Assembly (NCBI RefSeq): GCF_038025025.1
Contig: NW_027117343.1
Location: 1,426,001 to 1,490,000 of the forward strand
DNA: 64,000 nucleotides
Origin: Phyllosticta citribraziliensis
Lineage: Eukaryota
Reading direction: 5' to 3'
A model generated the notes under the pieces. It ran no database searches. It was not told where the DNA came from and was given only the letters and a program-made list of their open reading frames with translations. The position numbers and the translations under genes are program-made. Below are positions 4,422 through 62,824 of the stretch, piece by piece (within the stretch, counting starts at the first letter, position 1; every line of letters starts with the position of its first letter).

Positions 4422-5374
4422 GGCCGCTCGCTCGCTAGCGGAGGCAGGGCCGTCAAGTGGCAGCGGTGGGCGGGCGGGACTGGTGAGAGGCGGCGCGACT
4501 CGACAATGGTGTTGACGGCGACGACGGAACTCGGAGCAGCAGCAGTCGATCAGATCGGATCAGCAGGAGAGGAGATGTGTAGGTGGCAGCTTGCGAGAGG
4601 TCCCGAGGGCTTTAGTAGACGCAGAGAGGCGGGCCGGCGGTTGCAGCGACGACGACGTCGTTGTGATACACAGCGCTTTTGCCAGGGGCAGAGGCAATAT
4701 ATCAAGGAAGGGGGCTTGTAGAAATGCCATGGACTATGCTGCCAGGTACCAAAGCGCTCTGCAACACATTTGCGCAGACGGTTTGAAACGGCGAGCCTCT
4801 CCGTAGCACTTGTGGACGCTATGAATGGGATAGGCATTAAAGAAGGTCTGTCGGCCAGGCATGCAGCGCGAGCGATGCGGCAGCCAGGTAAGACAGCAAA
4901 AGTCCTGTCATGCGTCGTCTCCTCACGTCTCCCGAACATGGCCTCCATGATGCCAACGTGCAGTCGTCGTCGACGCTGCTCTGGTCTGGTGGCCCGGGGC
5001 CGACGCAGCACAACACCACAAACACGACCAAAATAAAAGTGAGCTGTAACATGCAATAGTCTCTGTCACGCCTGGGCTTGCAGCTCTGCTCCTGACTGAT
5101 TGGTGGCCTCAAAGGTACGCGCCCGCCCCGCTGGTCGACTGCATCGTGTCATGTACCAGAGCCCGGTTGGTCCAAGGCGACACGATGCGATCCCTCGGTA
5201 TAAAAAGAAAAACAAACCTCCTCCACGCCTCCTGGTGCCACCAGCCCTCGCCCGGCCCCGATCTTGCAGCACCCAAAAGCAACTGCCCTTCCCTGATGAC
5301 CTGGGGCAGCAAGAACTCATGAGGTTTCAGCCTTTGCCTCTCACAAGGGCTTGCAGCCCACCGCCTGCAAGTCA

Positions 5375-7104
5375 TTACCTCAACCCAGCTCCCGGCAGTC
5401 TTCCCGAGAAACCCTTGCCCTTGGTTCCGCTCCTGACCTTTGCCTGCCGTCCTCCACCCTCCGATAGGCCCTGTGCCGCCTGGAACTGAGAAGCTTCTTC
5501 CGAACGGAAGCCCTCTCCTTCGTTGAGCACACTCGCCCACAGCGACCCTATCGCCGCCGTCCACTCCTGCACCGCATGCACCCGATCCCTGTCCGTGCTA
5601 CTCTCCATCTCCACCGTCCCCTTTTGTTGGTTGATCTTCCCGCGCAGCTTCTTGTCCACGATAAGGAAGCTGACAATGTCTTGCACCTCCGGAAGCGAGA
5701 TTTTGAGCTGCCGTGAGATGAAACTGAGCGTGAACCGCGTGTACGGTGCAATCAGCTTCAGTACCGCCTTGGTGCGCATGTTGCGCGTCACTTCGTCAAT
5801 GTTTTCGGCAATGAACGGATCTGCAAGGAGCTCCTTGTTGTTTTGCAGCACCTTTTCGTACCCGTGGATGTCGTCGCGCTGGAACGCGTCCACCAGGTCC
5901 GTCATGGCCGCGATCCGCGGGTCGTTCTTGTACGGCTTGGTCTCCTGCGAGTCGAACGGGTTGATGTCTGACTTCATGAGCATCGTCGTCAGCACCAGGT
6001 ACTTGAGCACCTGGATCCGCTGCAGCGAGCCCGCCTCGTCGTAGTTGCGGAAGCTCTCGAAAAAGTCGCTCTGTGCCTCCTTCCAATTCTCTGTCCCGTC
6101 GTTAGAACCGCTCACCGCTCGTCAAAAGCAAAAACGAGGAAACCTGCCGCACCTTCGCTCATGTGCATCTTTCCTCCACACTCCCGGATAATGCCCATGA
6201 TCTTGGGATGTGGAACAGCTGATCGGACCTTGAGCGCGCGCTGATAAAGAGCCTGATTCGCTGTCAGCAATGCACTTGCCGCACACGCATGACACAAACC
6301 TTGAGCCGCTTGTTGTTCCTGGTTTCCGCGTACATGAGAATCTCGAGCGAGTACACCTCGAGCGAATAGGTGCCTTTGCTGGGATCATCCGTTCCATCCT
6401 CCCTCTGGCATGCCTTGTGTAGCTCCCGCAGCTTGTCGGTGAGCTGTCGGTAGTCCTTGCGCTCCAGCCACAACTTTGCCAGCTTGATGTTGGTCTTGAG
6501 CCACAGCCGCTCATTGTTGGTGCTCTGGAAGGAGTCTAGCGTGAGCGCATAAAACTTCTCCATGCACTGGTAGGCCTCATCATCCTCGGCCGCCTTTTCG
6601 ATGAAGTCGAGCATGTTGTTTATTGATTTTTCCGAGTAGTTTCGCGTGACGGCCGACTTGACGTAGGTGAGAAGCTCCTGGTAATGCTCCACCGCCTGCA
6701 AAGGGGTCAGTAATGATGCAATCGAGGAGCGCATTGGGACATTTGCCTGGGAATATCTGCCCAGCTTGAATTCCAGCTTGATGGCCTGTTTGAGACCCTT
6801 GAAGCCCCTAGAATCTCTCAGCAACCGTCCATTCAGGCCGACAGAGCGCCATGTACCAGTCGCCTTTCTCGCTCTCCAGCGCGGGTACACCGAGGAATTC
6901 GTCGATAGCATCCTCGGGGTTGTCTCCCTTCATTTGTTTTGCGCCATAGTATCTGTTTTCAATGTCGACATCGCCCGTTTGCTCGTCATCGTCGTCTTCG
7001 TATTCAAAGTCGTAGCTGAGCAGGTCAGTCAAGCTCATGTCAACAGTCCGCGGAGCTCACTCTTCCTGCTCCGACTCTTGCATGAAATCGTCGTCGGAAG
7101 ACAT
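5375..7104 (-). CDS. CSN2: COP9 signalosome subunit 2 (PCI domain)
   Basis: [75 protein letters not shown]. Five introns, including GC-AG 6696-6746. Confidence 0.95.
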
Positions 7105-32612: not shown

Positions 32613-33909
32613 ATGGCAATATACGCAGTCGTCGAGACGAAGCTTGAAGGCAAGCTGCGGCTCGTGGCGCGCGGAAAGGTGCGCGATGTGTACGAGCTGG
32701 ACAGCGAGAGCCTGCTGTTTGTGGCCACGGACCGCATCTCGGCGTACGATGTTATCATGAAGAACGTGAGTCCGTAGTTTCTCAGCCACTTTTCTCACCC
32801 GCGGTCGTCTCAAATAAAGTCTTTGTCTTTGTTTGCACATGGGCAGAGGGATAGGGAAAAAAGAGATGGCCTCCAATCCGAACACCCCCTAACAGCAGCA
32901 CTCAGGGCATCCCGCAAAAAGGCGCCCTCCTAACCGCGCTCTCCTCGCACTGGTTCACCTACCTCACCTCGCAAATCCCCTCCCTGCGAACCCACTTCCT
33001 CTCCTCCTCGGTGCCGTCGTCGATCCCGCTCGACGAGACCGAGCGCGCGCAGCTGGCCCGCCGCAGCATGCGCGTCAGACGCCTGCAAATCTACCCCATC
33101 GAGGCCATCGTGCGCGGCTACATCACCGGCTCCGCCTGGGCCGAGTACCGCAAGACGGGCACCGTCCACGGCACTCCCATGCCGGAGGGCCTTCAGGAGA
33201 GTGAGGAGCTGCCTGAACCGGTTTTTACGCCCAGCACTAAGGCGGAGGTGGGCGGGAAGGACGAGAATATCTCGAAGGAGAAGGGTGAGTTTTTTCCCAT
33301 CGTGCTATCTTTTCATTTCATTTGTTTCGGGGGACGAGATGCTGTGACGAATGCTGACACGCACAGCGGCCGAAATCATCGGCGTCGACGCCGCCAAAAA
33401 TATCGAGCAGCTCAGTCTCGAGCTGTACAAAAAGGCAAGCTCCATCTGATCAATCATCCAACCGCCCATCCGACGCTGACTCCATGGACTTGTTAGGCCG
33501 CCGCCTACGCCCGCTCCGCCGGCATCATCATCGCCGACACCAAGTTCGAATTCGGCTTCGACCCGGCCGACCCCAGCACCGTCATCCTAGTCGACGAGGT
33601 GCTGACGCCCGACAGCAGCCGCTTCTGGCCGGCCGATGCGTATGCCGTGGGCAAGACGCAAGACAGCTTTGACAAGCAGGTGCGTCTACTTTCTCCCCCT
33701 TTCTCCCTAGTTTTCCAACTCTTGTGGGCGTTCTGTGGTGGATGACTGACGTACTGACGCCCGCGCAGTTCCTCCGCGACTGGCTCACGCGCGAAGGCCT
33801 CAAGGGCAAGGAGGGCGTCGAGATGCCGCTGGAGATCGTGGCGCGCACGTACGAGAAGTACGTCGAGGCGTACGAGCGCTTGACGGGGAGCAAGTGGCAG
33901 ACTCAGTAG
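32613..33909 (+). CDS. ADE1: SAICAR synthetase
   Basis: [77 protein letters not shown]; 4 introns, including GC-AG 33435-33496. Confidence 0.96.
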
Positions 33910-34464: not shown

Positions 34465-37069
34465 TTACACAAACCTGCCCCTCTCCTCATCATCCTTCGG
34501 CACAGTCGTCACGACCTTGGCGCCGCCCTCCGCGCGCTCATCCGTCTCCACCACCAGCTCCCTCGGATCATCAAACGCATCAAACCGGACGCCCTTGACG
34601 CGGGCATAGACCATCTGACAAACAACCCTGCCCACAAACGCGACAGCGGCCCAAAGCAGCCCGCCGACAGGCGCAGCGACGAACGCGCCAAACGCACTCC
34701 AGTCGTCCGTGTACAGCCCCTTCTCCAGCAGAATGAGGTTGGCGCCGTCCTTGACGTTGCCGTAGTACACGGTGCCGAACAGCCAGACGGTGAAGATGCC
34801 GCCGAGGCCGCCCACGACGACTTCGAAGCCGCGCCACGCGTAGCAGCGGTCCCACAGGCCGATGAGCAGGACGGGGATCAGCGCCGCGGACACCAGGTCG
34901 CTGATCAGGTAGACCTGCAGCACCGAGGGGCTCTTGAGCGCGACGACGATGGTCGGCGCGATGATTAGGATCACGCCCGCGCGGATCCACCACAGCGAGA
35001 GTCGGTTGCGGAAGAGGTCGTTGGAGCCCGTGCTCACCATGGCGGACTGGAAGCTGTCGAAGGCTGACGTTGAGAGTGCGACGACCATGACTAGCACGAT
35101 GCCGATGACCCAGGCGGGCAATTGGGCTAGCAGCAGGAAGAACGACACGCTGCCGTCGGCGCTGGGCGAGCTGAGCGCCCCGCTCCACGCCGCGAGCAGC
35201 CCCGTGCTGCCGACGAGCACGAGGATGGCGGTGACGCTGGCGCTGGCGATGGCAGTGCCGATCTTCAGGTCCTTATCGGTGCGCGACGCAAAGGTGCGCA
35301 TCCAGAAGCCCGACAGGAAGAAGTCGTTGGTCAGCACGGCGACGGGCAGGATGTAGATGAGCTGCCAGCCGAGGAGCGAGGAGTCGAGCAGGCCGGACGA
35401 CGCGATGAGGCTGCGGTCGATGTGCGTCGTGGAGCCGACAGTGATGACGCCGATCAGGATCAGCCCGATGACCATGGCGGCTTGGATGTTGTTGGTTATG
35501 AACGACACCTTGAAGCCGCCCAGTGCTGTGGGGATGCGTCAGTTTGCGTGTCTTGCTGGATATAGGGGTGAGTTGGCTGGCAGCGTACTGGTGTAGATGG
35601 TCGTGACGACGCACTCGACGATGACGGCCGGCAAGCCGTCTAGCCCCGTCAGCGCGTTGACGGTCTGCTGTAGTGCAGAGAGTTCGGCGACCATGTAGAG
35701 GAACAGCGTAATCAACCTGTGCGCACCGCATCAGCCCCATTCCATCAACACCACCATCGTCTTGATAGAGGCCACCACTCACGTCATGACGCTCAAATAC
35801 AGCGCCGTCACAGCGCCATACCGCTTGCGGGTCCACTCCGTCAACACAAAGCCGTCGGGGCACTTGCGGCGAATAACGGGGCCCAGCCAGCCAAACGCCA
35901 GCAGCGGCAGGCCGGACGAGAGCGAATACACGACCAGGCCCTGCACGCCGGCAATCGTCGAGATCTCAGGGTACGTGAAGAGGATTCCCGAACCGAGTCC
36001 TGCAGGCAGCGAAAGCGCGCGCCTTGGTCAGCAAGAAAGACGGGGGAAGAAAAGGGGAGGGGAAGGGGGGTAAACAGCGGCAGCACGTTCCTCACGCAAG
36101 AATTATCTTGATCGAGTTCTTACGGTTCTTCTCAGCTTCGTTGCAGAGGAAGAGAGGAGCGGCAGCTGTAGCCAGCCAGCCAGCCCTTGAAATCCATGTC
36201 CCCCTCCATTTGAGAAGAGGGGTGGATGGAGCCATGGGCTGATTTGCTGCTGCTGCTGCTACTCCCTCTCTCTGCAACTCGGCGCCCGCAGTGAAGCCGC
36301 ACAGAAAAGCCCCGGCCGAGCTCTTCTCCTCACGCACCTACCCACCTTGCCTGCCTGCCCGTCGGCGCATCCAGCCGCTCACGCGCCCCCCAAACCCTTG
36401 CTCTTAACAACAACGCTCTCAAACAGCGCGCTCCGCCCGGCGACAGCCAGACAGCCAGATAGCCAGGCAAGGCAGGACAGCGATGACGAAGAAAGAAAAC
36501 ACGGCCGAGACCCTCTGCGAGAGATCGATCATGATACGAACCTGAGACACATCCATCCGTCGTTTCTAGTCCGCGAGAGGACGCTCGCTTGCGCCGCCGT
36601 GGCGTCGTTCGTTTTGCCACAGCATGCGAGAAAGAGGCTGCCGCCGCCGCCGTTGTGGATAGCCGTTACGCACACGCGCAGCGGCATCCGCGGGGCCCGG
36701 AGATCAACTCACCCGACGCGATGAAGTTGAGCGCAAGGGGGATCGCTGGGATGCAGTCAGCAAGCGGTTCAGCGAGCGGGGGCAAAAAAGAAGAAGGAGA
36801 TAGCGGGGCGATTGGTTGTCGCCGTCCGGGGAAGAATGGCGCCGCGTTGTTTGATGTTACCCTTTTGCGTCCTGTTGCTCGACAGGTAGTCCCCCTTGGA
36901 CTGATGGCGCAGCCGCCATGCTACAGCCACGCCGCTCAAGCTGCTCGCCGTGCGGCCGGTTAGTTTGCGCGTTGTTTGGGAGACAAGGTGCTTGTGCTGA
37001 GACGTACAGCAATGCTCCGTAGGTCAGGTATATGATGGCGTTGGACGCCTCGAACGAAGGAATGCCCAT
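34465..37069 (-). CDS. Sodium:solute symporter-family transporter (DUR31/NCU01977-type), probably thiamine-related
   Basis: Spliced N-terminus MGIPSFEASNAIIYLTYGALL..YLSSNRTQKAIPLALNFIASGLGSGILFTYPE; GGFKVSFITNNIQ, FWMRTFAS; many TM segments; riboswitch in intron 36000-36712. Confidence 0.88.
36077..36300 (-). promoter_or_regulatory. TPP riboswitch aptamer (intronic, splicing-regulating)
   Basis: Minus strand reads GCGGGCGC..(long P3 hairpin)..GCTGAGAAGAACCGTAAGAACTCGATCAAGATAATTCTTGCGTGAGGA. Contains the invariant CUGAGA, P2 GCGG/CCGU, P4 CUC/GAG and P5 CAAGA/UCUUG, just upstream of branch point GCTGAC and acceptor CAG at 36000. Confidence 0.93.
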
Positions 37070-62698: not shown

Positions 62699-62824
62699 GG
62701 GTCTGTGGTCTAGGGGTATGACACTCCCTTAGCAACATCCAAAACTGCTCTAGATCGTCTAGAATAGTCTCTGATAGCGCTCCTCGAATGGGAGAGGTCC
62801 CGGGTTCAATTCCCGGCGGATCCA
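62699..62824 (+). tRNA. tRNA-Ala(AGC) with 54-nt intron (62735-62788)
   Basis: Acceptor stem GGGTCTG/CGGATCC with G3:U70; anticodon arm CTCCC-TTAGCA|T-GGGAG; T arm CCGGG-TTCAATT-CCCGG; discriminator A. Confidence 0.95.

Follow-up and report, generated by a model that had tools for sequence, protein, structure and literature searches.

The window analysed here is a 64,000-nucleotide stretch of the Phyllosticta citribraziliensis genome (contig NW_027117343.1, positions 1,426,001 to 1,490,000), and it contains on its minus strand a six-exon gene whose third intron carries a thiamine pyrophosphate (TPP) aptamer together with an upstream element, alpha, that can pair with the 3′ shoulder of the aptamer, alpha′. 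We read this intron as an orthologous copy of the fungal NCU01977/DUR31 ('Type II') TPP splicing riboswitch, situated in intron 3 of an SSF-family gene for a probable thiamin importer, and we put the probability of this reading at roughly 0.88. The class, its mechanism and its likely substrate are already published, and what is new is this Phyllosticta copy; a literature search for 'Phyllosticta' together with 'riboswitch' returned one unrelated paper only. Both a eukaryotic riboswitch and its long-range expression platform were readable from raw sequence, and a preliminary description that had seen only the letters read both correctly.

The intron occupies exactly the 713 nt that had been assigned to it, as judged from the sequence and from a gene model identical to the public protein of this gene (P0016). 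It had also been described as far longer than its neighbours, and it is 6 to 11 times the length of the other four introns, which measure 67, 115, 66 and 63 nt in RNA contigs of public runs. The parts of the intron, listed below, are all placed relative to its productive donor, S1, at 36712.

36000..36712, minus strand: riboswitch intron 3, 713 nt, GTGAGT...CTGCAG (from the sequence; the P0016 annotation removes exactly this stretch)
36666..36668, minus strand: in-frame TAA, 15 codons past S1 (from the reading frame)
36637..36648, minus strand: alpha element GGCGGCGGCAGC, with the core GGCGGCAGC, in a (GGC)n run (from the pairing analysis; consensus from PMC3597705)
36535..36543, minus strand: alternative donor S2, AGGUUCGUA, cut between 36542 and 36541 (from the joint in RNA contig X2)
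36077..36300, minus strand: TPP aptamer, from P1 to P1 (from the fold and the covariance model, whose match is 36073-36303)
36141..36278, minus strand: long P3 extension, rich in GCA/GGCU repeats (from the fold)
36130..36135, minus strand: J3-2 CUGAGA, the pyrimidine-sensing side (from the RF00059 consensus alignment; invariant in 11 relatives)
36091..36116, minus strand: P4-P5 arm, CUCG AU CAAGA UAAU UCUUG CG UGAG (from the fold; pairs kept in 99.0% of cells across 49 sequences)
36073..36084, minus strand: alpha′, GCUGCCGCUGUU, of which 36077-36084 are shared with the P1 3′ strand (from the pairing and the fold)
36033-36072: C/U-rich tract ahead of the branch point (from the sequence)
36027..36031, minus strand: branch-point-like CUGAC, 28 nt before the acceptor (from the sequence; GCTRAC stands at the same place in most relatives)
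36000..36001, minus strand: acceptor AG, with exon 4 beginning at 35999 (from RNA contig joints and the gene model)

The in-frame TAA truncates every isoform in which the beginning of the intron is retained.

The minimum free energy fold of 36300-36075 shows the full TPP architecture, P1 to P5, with a P3 extension of about 140 nt. In this fold P1 pairs GCGGC..CAC with GUG..GCCGC, P2 pairs UGCGG with CCGUA, P4 pairs CUCG with UGAG and P5 pairs CAAGA with UCUUG. For a test independent of the window we drew on 80 metagenomic loci coding for relatives of the gene's large last exon. Eleven relative aptamers were aligned with the window left out, RNAalifold gave the TPP fold for this alignment, and the covariance model made from it (model R1) matched the window at 36303-36073 (minus strand) over all 153 model positions, with 106.8 bits and an E-value of 4e-31. 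Fold and model match together bear out the complete aptamer that had been placed at 36077-36300 (minus strand). Model R1 detects an aptamer in 66 of these 80 loci, in every case ahead of the transporter exon and in its orientation. Of the 14 unmatched loci, 12 offer no more than 511 nt of upstream DNA; the other two, L027 and L040, have about 1 kb and yet give no match. A strict regular expression for the aptamer core was dropped, as it found 17 of the 80 loci against 66 for the covariance model.

For the pairing statistics we used an alignment of 49 sequences, the window and 48 loci, from which duplicate rows and two matches cut by contig ends had been left out. Standard pairs fill 96.4% of the pair cells, compared with 25–44% when the pairing partners are slid, and 12 of the 32 pairs show changes on both sides; none of 500 shuffles reached any of the five measures computed. 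These figures come from an alignment that was fitted to model R1 and hence leans towards the model structure. Its P3 extension makes the window aptamer the longest of 65, at 231 nt by its model match compared with 89–226 nt in the 64 relatives that match over the full length, and its conserved core positions are all intact.

The preliminary description had proposed an Infernal search with Rfam RF00059 as a check, and the outcome depends on the threshold. An Rfam scan of the whole window gave no RF00059 match at the gathering score of 54.3 bits; a 1-kb local scan at an E-value threshold gave 38.0 bits (E 1.2e-5) at 36071-36176. The 3′ half of that match is well aligned (GCUGAGA, ACC, GAAC, GAUC..UAAU..GCG, GGA), and the 5′ half is misplaced within the 3′ strand of the long P3, because GCUGCCGCU recurs there. 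This sequence is the core of alpha′; its second copy lies in the P3 extension at 36155-36167 (minus strand), where 9 bp with alpha are possible. At its gathering score RF00059 detects one of 13 aptamer-holding loci (L068, which has a short P3), and the absent Rfam match is therefore no evidence against the class. We read the miss as a sensitivity limit that comes from the long P3 insertion, with no defining feature of the aptamer failing. Lack of an RF00059 hit had been named as grounds for rejection, and at the gathering score this rule would have wrongly discarded the finding. By the same token, genome surveys that rely on the RF00059 gathering score under-count fungal TPP riboswitches.

The long-range pairing is present in the window as it had been described: the 10-mers CGGCGGCAGC (36646-36637) and GCTGCCGCTG (36084-36075) form 10 contiguous pairs, one of them G-U, at exactly the positions given. 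Two further G-U pairs bring the helix to 12 bp, between 36648-36637 and 36073-36084, and the overlap of alpha′ with the P1 3′ strand, which had also been noted, amounts to 8 nt (36084-36077). The alpha 10-mer starts 66 nt after S1, alpha and alpha′ are about 553 nt apart, and GGCGGCAGC, which begins 67 nt past S1 and has its GCGGC core at +68, conforms to RGCGGYRRY, the published consensus. We compared the pairing against the P1 3′ shoulder with that of dinucleotide-preserving shuffles made within the window. When the 412 nt upstream of the aptamer were shuffled, the same run length was reached in 41 of 1000 shuffles and the same duplex energy in 69 of 1000; when the first 110 nt of the intron were shuffled, these counts fell to 11 and 13 of 1000. 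An unconstrained fold of 36745-35980 (766 nt) forms alpha-alpha′ at −354.3 kcal/mol, and forcing P1 in it costs 6.3 kcal/mol, values that are indicative at such a length.

What raises the pairing above chance is its recurrence in relatives at an equivalent position. We were able to locate S1 as well as the aptamer in 44 distinct loci (the window and 43 metagenomic loci), and in 31 of these the first 150 nt of the intron contain a contiguous run of at least 10 bp with the P1 3′ region. The shuffle expectation is 2.41 loci, and no more than 6 had such a run in any of 100 shuffles of the whole set. Alpha lies 30–82 nt after S1 in relatives, and the distance from alpha′ to the acceptor, 73 nt in the window, is 49–74 nt across 42 relatives. 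We used the GCGG[CU] core as the anchor of the rows; none was obtained for L014 and L068, so that 42 loci remained, in 41 distinct rows. Positions −3 to +8 of alpha-alpha′ were mostly paired. The pair types change at the 5′ flank: position −2 holds AU 14, GC 9, GU 4, UG 1 and CG 1 times, and position −3 holds GC 15, GU 8, AU 4 and UA 1 times. Permuting alpha′ among loci reached the observed pairing at positions −3 to −1 (91 of 123 cells) in 2 of 5000 trials. The 3′ flank showed no pairing excess (148 of 205 cells, a value reached by 4985 of 5000 permutations), since the 3′ side hardly varies. The 43 metagenomic loci allow the alpha-alpha′ covariation reported in 2013 to be checked independently.

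We also considered an extension of alpha-alpha′ into the P4 3′ strand, which in the window would pair UUUCUCGC with GUGAGGAA and give a total duplex energy of −35.5 kcal/mol. It is not general and was rejected: the mean z is −0.65, z falls below −2 in 6 of 42 loci, and the window itself ranks 113 of 200. The lineages of L037, L067, L009 and L010 may have such an extension. Two other observations concern this part of the intron. A C/U-rich tract (CCCCUUCCC-like) directly follows alpha′ in nearly all loci, upstream of the branch point, and L028:214-240 lacks 47 nt (GTGAGT...AAAG) between S1 and alpha that are present in the near-identical L073:2833-2905, which looks as if a mini-intron had been spliced out from S1 to the AG just before alpha.

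Non-productive isoforms of the gene exist in RNA. The evidence consists of contigs from four of 21 listed runs, and contigs drop rare forms. A 736-nt contig (X2, depth 8.7) has the three ordinary introns that it covers removed and joins 36542 to 35999, so that an alternative donor (CAG|GUUCGU, at 36541) is combined with the usual acceptor; this isoform encodes 73 residues before the TAA at 36666-36668. The deepest contig, X1 (4072 nt, depth 783), retains the riboswitch intron and the intron 36746-36860 and has the other three introns removed. The latter, a 115-nt intron on the minus strand, is kept in X1 together with the riboswitch intron, and removal of the two introns flanking the 33-nt micro-exon may be coupled. 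The contigs of X4 and X5 come from plant metagenome RNA and represent a relative of about 93–95% identity. They are unspliced across the acceptor (35973-36217), and one X5 contig passes through S1, covering 36677-36745 joined to 36861. This relative has zero substitutions in 36073-36156, the aptamer 3′ core with alpha′, and has substitutions and indels on both flanks of that block; alpha is outside the covered stretch.

The mechanism that the preliminary description had proposed is the published NCU01977 model (PMC3597705): alpha in the window fits its consensus, and relatives share the element with covariation in its flanks. In that model, without TPP, alpha pairs with the P1 3′ shoulder across some 530 nt, to the strong advantage of the distal donor S1, and with TPP, P1 holds alpha′, so that the proximal donors S2–S4 are used or no splicing occurs and premature stops result; disruptive and compensatory mutants back it (PMC3597705). 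Transferred to this fungus, where we infer TPP binding and the direction of the switch, the model would run as follows. When TPP is low, pairing of alpha (36637-36648) with alpha′ (36073-36084) would loop out some 550 nt that contain the internal donor (36541) and would place S1 (36712) close to the branch point and the acceptor; splicing would then take out all 713 nt of the intron, and the 526-aa carrier would be made. When TPP is bound, the aptamer would close, P1 would take alpha′, and S1 would lose its advantage, leaving splicing from the internal donor AG|GUUCGU (36541) or retention of the intron. Both of these outcomes would carry the TAA, and expression would be expected to fall.

The internal donor S2 is itself strongly conserved. 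It lies in AGGUUCGU, which is present in 39 of the 44 distinct loci; AGGTTCGT stands between alpha and the aptamer in the same number of loci, and the next nucleotide is A in 34 of them. No other part of that stretch reaches 90% conservation. All 39 motif-bearing loci have an in-frame stop between S1 and the motif. As a donor, AGGUUCGUA is non-consensus, a consensus donor being AGGUAAGUA. The five loci without the motif are L068, which has a very short intron, L012 with GGUUUAU, L015 with GGUAAGU, and L061 and L071 with AGCUUCGU, which has no GU. Several riboswitch parts seem to decay together in the lineage of L061, L062 and L071, where alpha′ has changed to GCUGCCACU, alpha-alpha′ is broken and the donor motif reads AGCUUCGU; the aptamer there, at about 5305-5465 or 4705-4865, scores 46.9 bits, the lowest among the full-length matches.

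What the motif might pair with was approached in two ways. Its pairing with the aptamer 3′ core was rejected, being no better than that of shuffled motifs (median rank 115 of 200 across 39 loci), and the predicted partner within the aptamer shifts from locus to locus. Pairing with the branch-point region was dropped, as that region is without conservation beyond GCTRAC. Li and Breaker found no single alternative donor critical in their reporter and concluded, from the regulation that persists once alpha is deleted, that a second, undiscovered route exists (PMC3597705). The internal donor could be this 'other, undiscovered route', for example as a site in a special register read by a protein or a small nuclear RNA. 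That it forms a fixed, sequence-specific part of the expression platform, more than an interchangeable cryptic site, we suggest tentatively and at well under even odds, because of its conservation in 39 of 44 loci, its non-consensus form, its use in vivo and the loss of its GU alongside the decayed alpha-alpha′. The motif is unmentioned in the main texts on this class as far as these were available to us (PMC3597705, PMC5882874, PMC5997356), although intron alignments in the supplements of the first two may show it, and a literal literature search for GGUUCGU or GGTTCGT with 'riboswitch' gave only unrelated papers among the 10 listed of 19. This strictly conserved internal donor motif is a lead that deserves a mutational test.

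The translation of the six exons equals the public 526-aa protein P0016 residue for residue, the public name of which is 'urea transporter [Phyllosticta citribraziliensis]'. The exons are as follows.

37069-37008, minus strand: transporter exon 1 (gene model identical to P0016)
36940-36861, minus strand: transporter exon 2 (gene model identical to P0016)
36713..36745, minus strand: transporter exon 3, 33 nt, ..PLALNFIAS+G, ending at the productive donor S1 (RNA contig joints, gene model)
35999-35781, minus strand: transporter exon 4 (gene model identical to P0016)
35714-35589, minus strand: transporter exon 5 (gene model identical to P0016)
35525-34465, minus strand: transporter exon 6, the large last exon (gene model identical to P0016)

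The end of the exon 3 peptide, ..NF[IV]ASG|GT, is kept in all 58 loci with enough upstream DNA. Homologs of the protein carry the names urea transporter or SSF, many with a precomputed PF00474 match, and PF00474 on the whole of P0016 covers residues 41-401 with 22.7 bits and an E-value of 5e-5, the cut-off being 22.8 bits. By protein match the host is a Dothideomycete, and the best protein homologs include proteins of Verticillium, Fusarium, Parastagonospora and Coccidioides, which Li and Breaker listed as riboswitch carriers in 2013 (PMC3597705). The gene labelled 'urea transporter' probably encodes a thiamine-regulated thiamin importer, because DUR31, which the available part of Donovan et al. 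2018 terms the NCU01977 ortholog, transports thiamin in Candida (PMC5997356). The earlier suggestion that the carrier imports thiamine and not urea agrees with that work, and for the protein in this fungus we extend the substrate by analogy. A gene within the intron was considered and rejected, the 177-aa plus-strand frame at 36191-36724 having no Pfam match.

Several points weigh against reading the intron as an NCU01977-type splicing riboswitch. The support for orthology to NCU01977 is indirect and comes from the homologs, RF00059 stays below its gathering score here, and the Pfam SSF score falls just under its cut-off for the whole protein. The productive junction 36713->35999 appears in none of the four runs, and contigs cannot show absence. 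Judged by the window alone, the pairing exceeds chance only modestly, as the (GGC)n run around alpha permits three registers. Among the 44 distinct loci, 13 have runs shorter than 10 bp, and the loci are mutually related, so that their counts overstate independence.

A first alternative is that the aptamer is real and alpha-alpha′ is a by-product of the GC-rich (GGC)n microsatellite, with regulation exerted through intron retention or the internal donor only. The shuffle frequencies and the three registers speak for it, as does the residual thiamin response left after deletion of alpha in N. crassa (PMC3597705); against it, the element stands where relatives have it and fits the consensus, runs of at least 10 bp exceed expectation by far across loci, and the flanks co-vary. 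We consider this explanation very unlikely. A switch like those of NMT1 and THI4, in which P4-P5 of the free aptamer would mask a nearby alternative donor and TPP would release it, with alpha-alpha′ secondary, is a shade less likely again. Li and Breaker do suggest a minor effect of P4-P5 on the proximal site S4, and a strictly conserved internal donor is present; the duplex of the donor motif with the aptamer 3′ core nevertheless stays at the level of shuffles, and its partner moves between loci. Least likely of the three is a relic aptamer that is decaying within a long intron spliced constitutively, in which case the unusual isoforms would be splicing noise. Such a relic would suit RNA contigs that contain neither the productive junction nor any thiamine condition, and the one lineage of relatives (L061, L062, L071) that looks degenerate, whereas in the window all conserved core positions are intact, a close relative is unchanged in 36073-36156 while its flanks change, and conservation extends to alpha, alpha′, S2 and the in-frame stop.

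Outside the gene, an open frame at 32855-33496 (plus strand) encodes a SAICAR synthetase domain (PF01259, 88.7 bits) and converges with the transporter gene. Contig X1 extends about 2.4 kb past 35300, and the 3′ ends of the transporter transcript and of the transcript of this frame may overlap. A tRNA at 62699-62824 (plus strand; Rfam 46.7 bits) carries a 59-nt insertion, a probable intron, in its anticodon loop; with its bacterial setting, ARAGORN reported no tRNA gene in this stretch.

Three known systems allow the intron to be placed. With the NMT1/THI4-type switches, as these are summarised from Cheah et al. 2007 in PMC3597705 and in the available part of PMC5882874, it shares the aptamer class, the choice between alternative 5′ splice sites and, by its predicted direction, an OFF switch with TPP. 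Those switches lie in introns of the 5′ untranslated region and use P4-P5 nucleotides to mask a proximal donor, a pairing that is unsupported in the window. Closer is the riboswitch intron of Candida parapsilosis DUR31, which splices in a thiamin-dependent manner according to the part of Donovan et al. 2018 available to us (PMC5997356): it has an intronic TPP aptamer and belongs to an orthologous carrier family (clade V). Unlike the intron described here, this is a budding-yeast intron, and the likeness of the two proteins is one of carrier family.

The closest counterpart is NCU01977 itself. Its published class has an alpha of RGCGGYRRY, about 11 contiguous pairs whose formation excludes P1, and alpha and alpha′ commonly less than 60 nt from the splice sites; the alpha-alpha′ pairing is kept in 16 of 18 riboswitch-carrying species, and the P3 extension is dispensable in N. 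crassa (PMC3597705). 'Type II' is the name used by Mukherjee et al. 2018, in the part of that paper at hand, for members in long introns (650–900 nt) of urea-transporter-family genes (PMC5882874). The window differs in small ways: in coming from another fungal class (Dothideomycete, by protein match), in having alpha embedded in a (GGC)n run, and in distances slightly beyond the common range, 68 nt from S1 to alpha and 73 nt from alpha′ to the acceptor. Its helix also gains G-U pairs 5′ of alpha, whereas in most relatives the added pairs lie on the opposite side or the flanks are Watson-Crick. In accordance with NCU01977, the aptamer sits at the 3′ end of a long coding-region intron of a urea-transporter-family gene, P3 is long and variable, the use of internal alternative donors leads to premature stops, and alpha, shortly after S1, pairs with the P1 3′ shoulder about 550 nt away through 12 pairs, 8 of which use P1 nucleotides.

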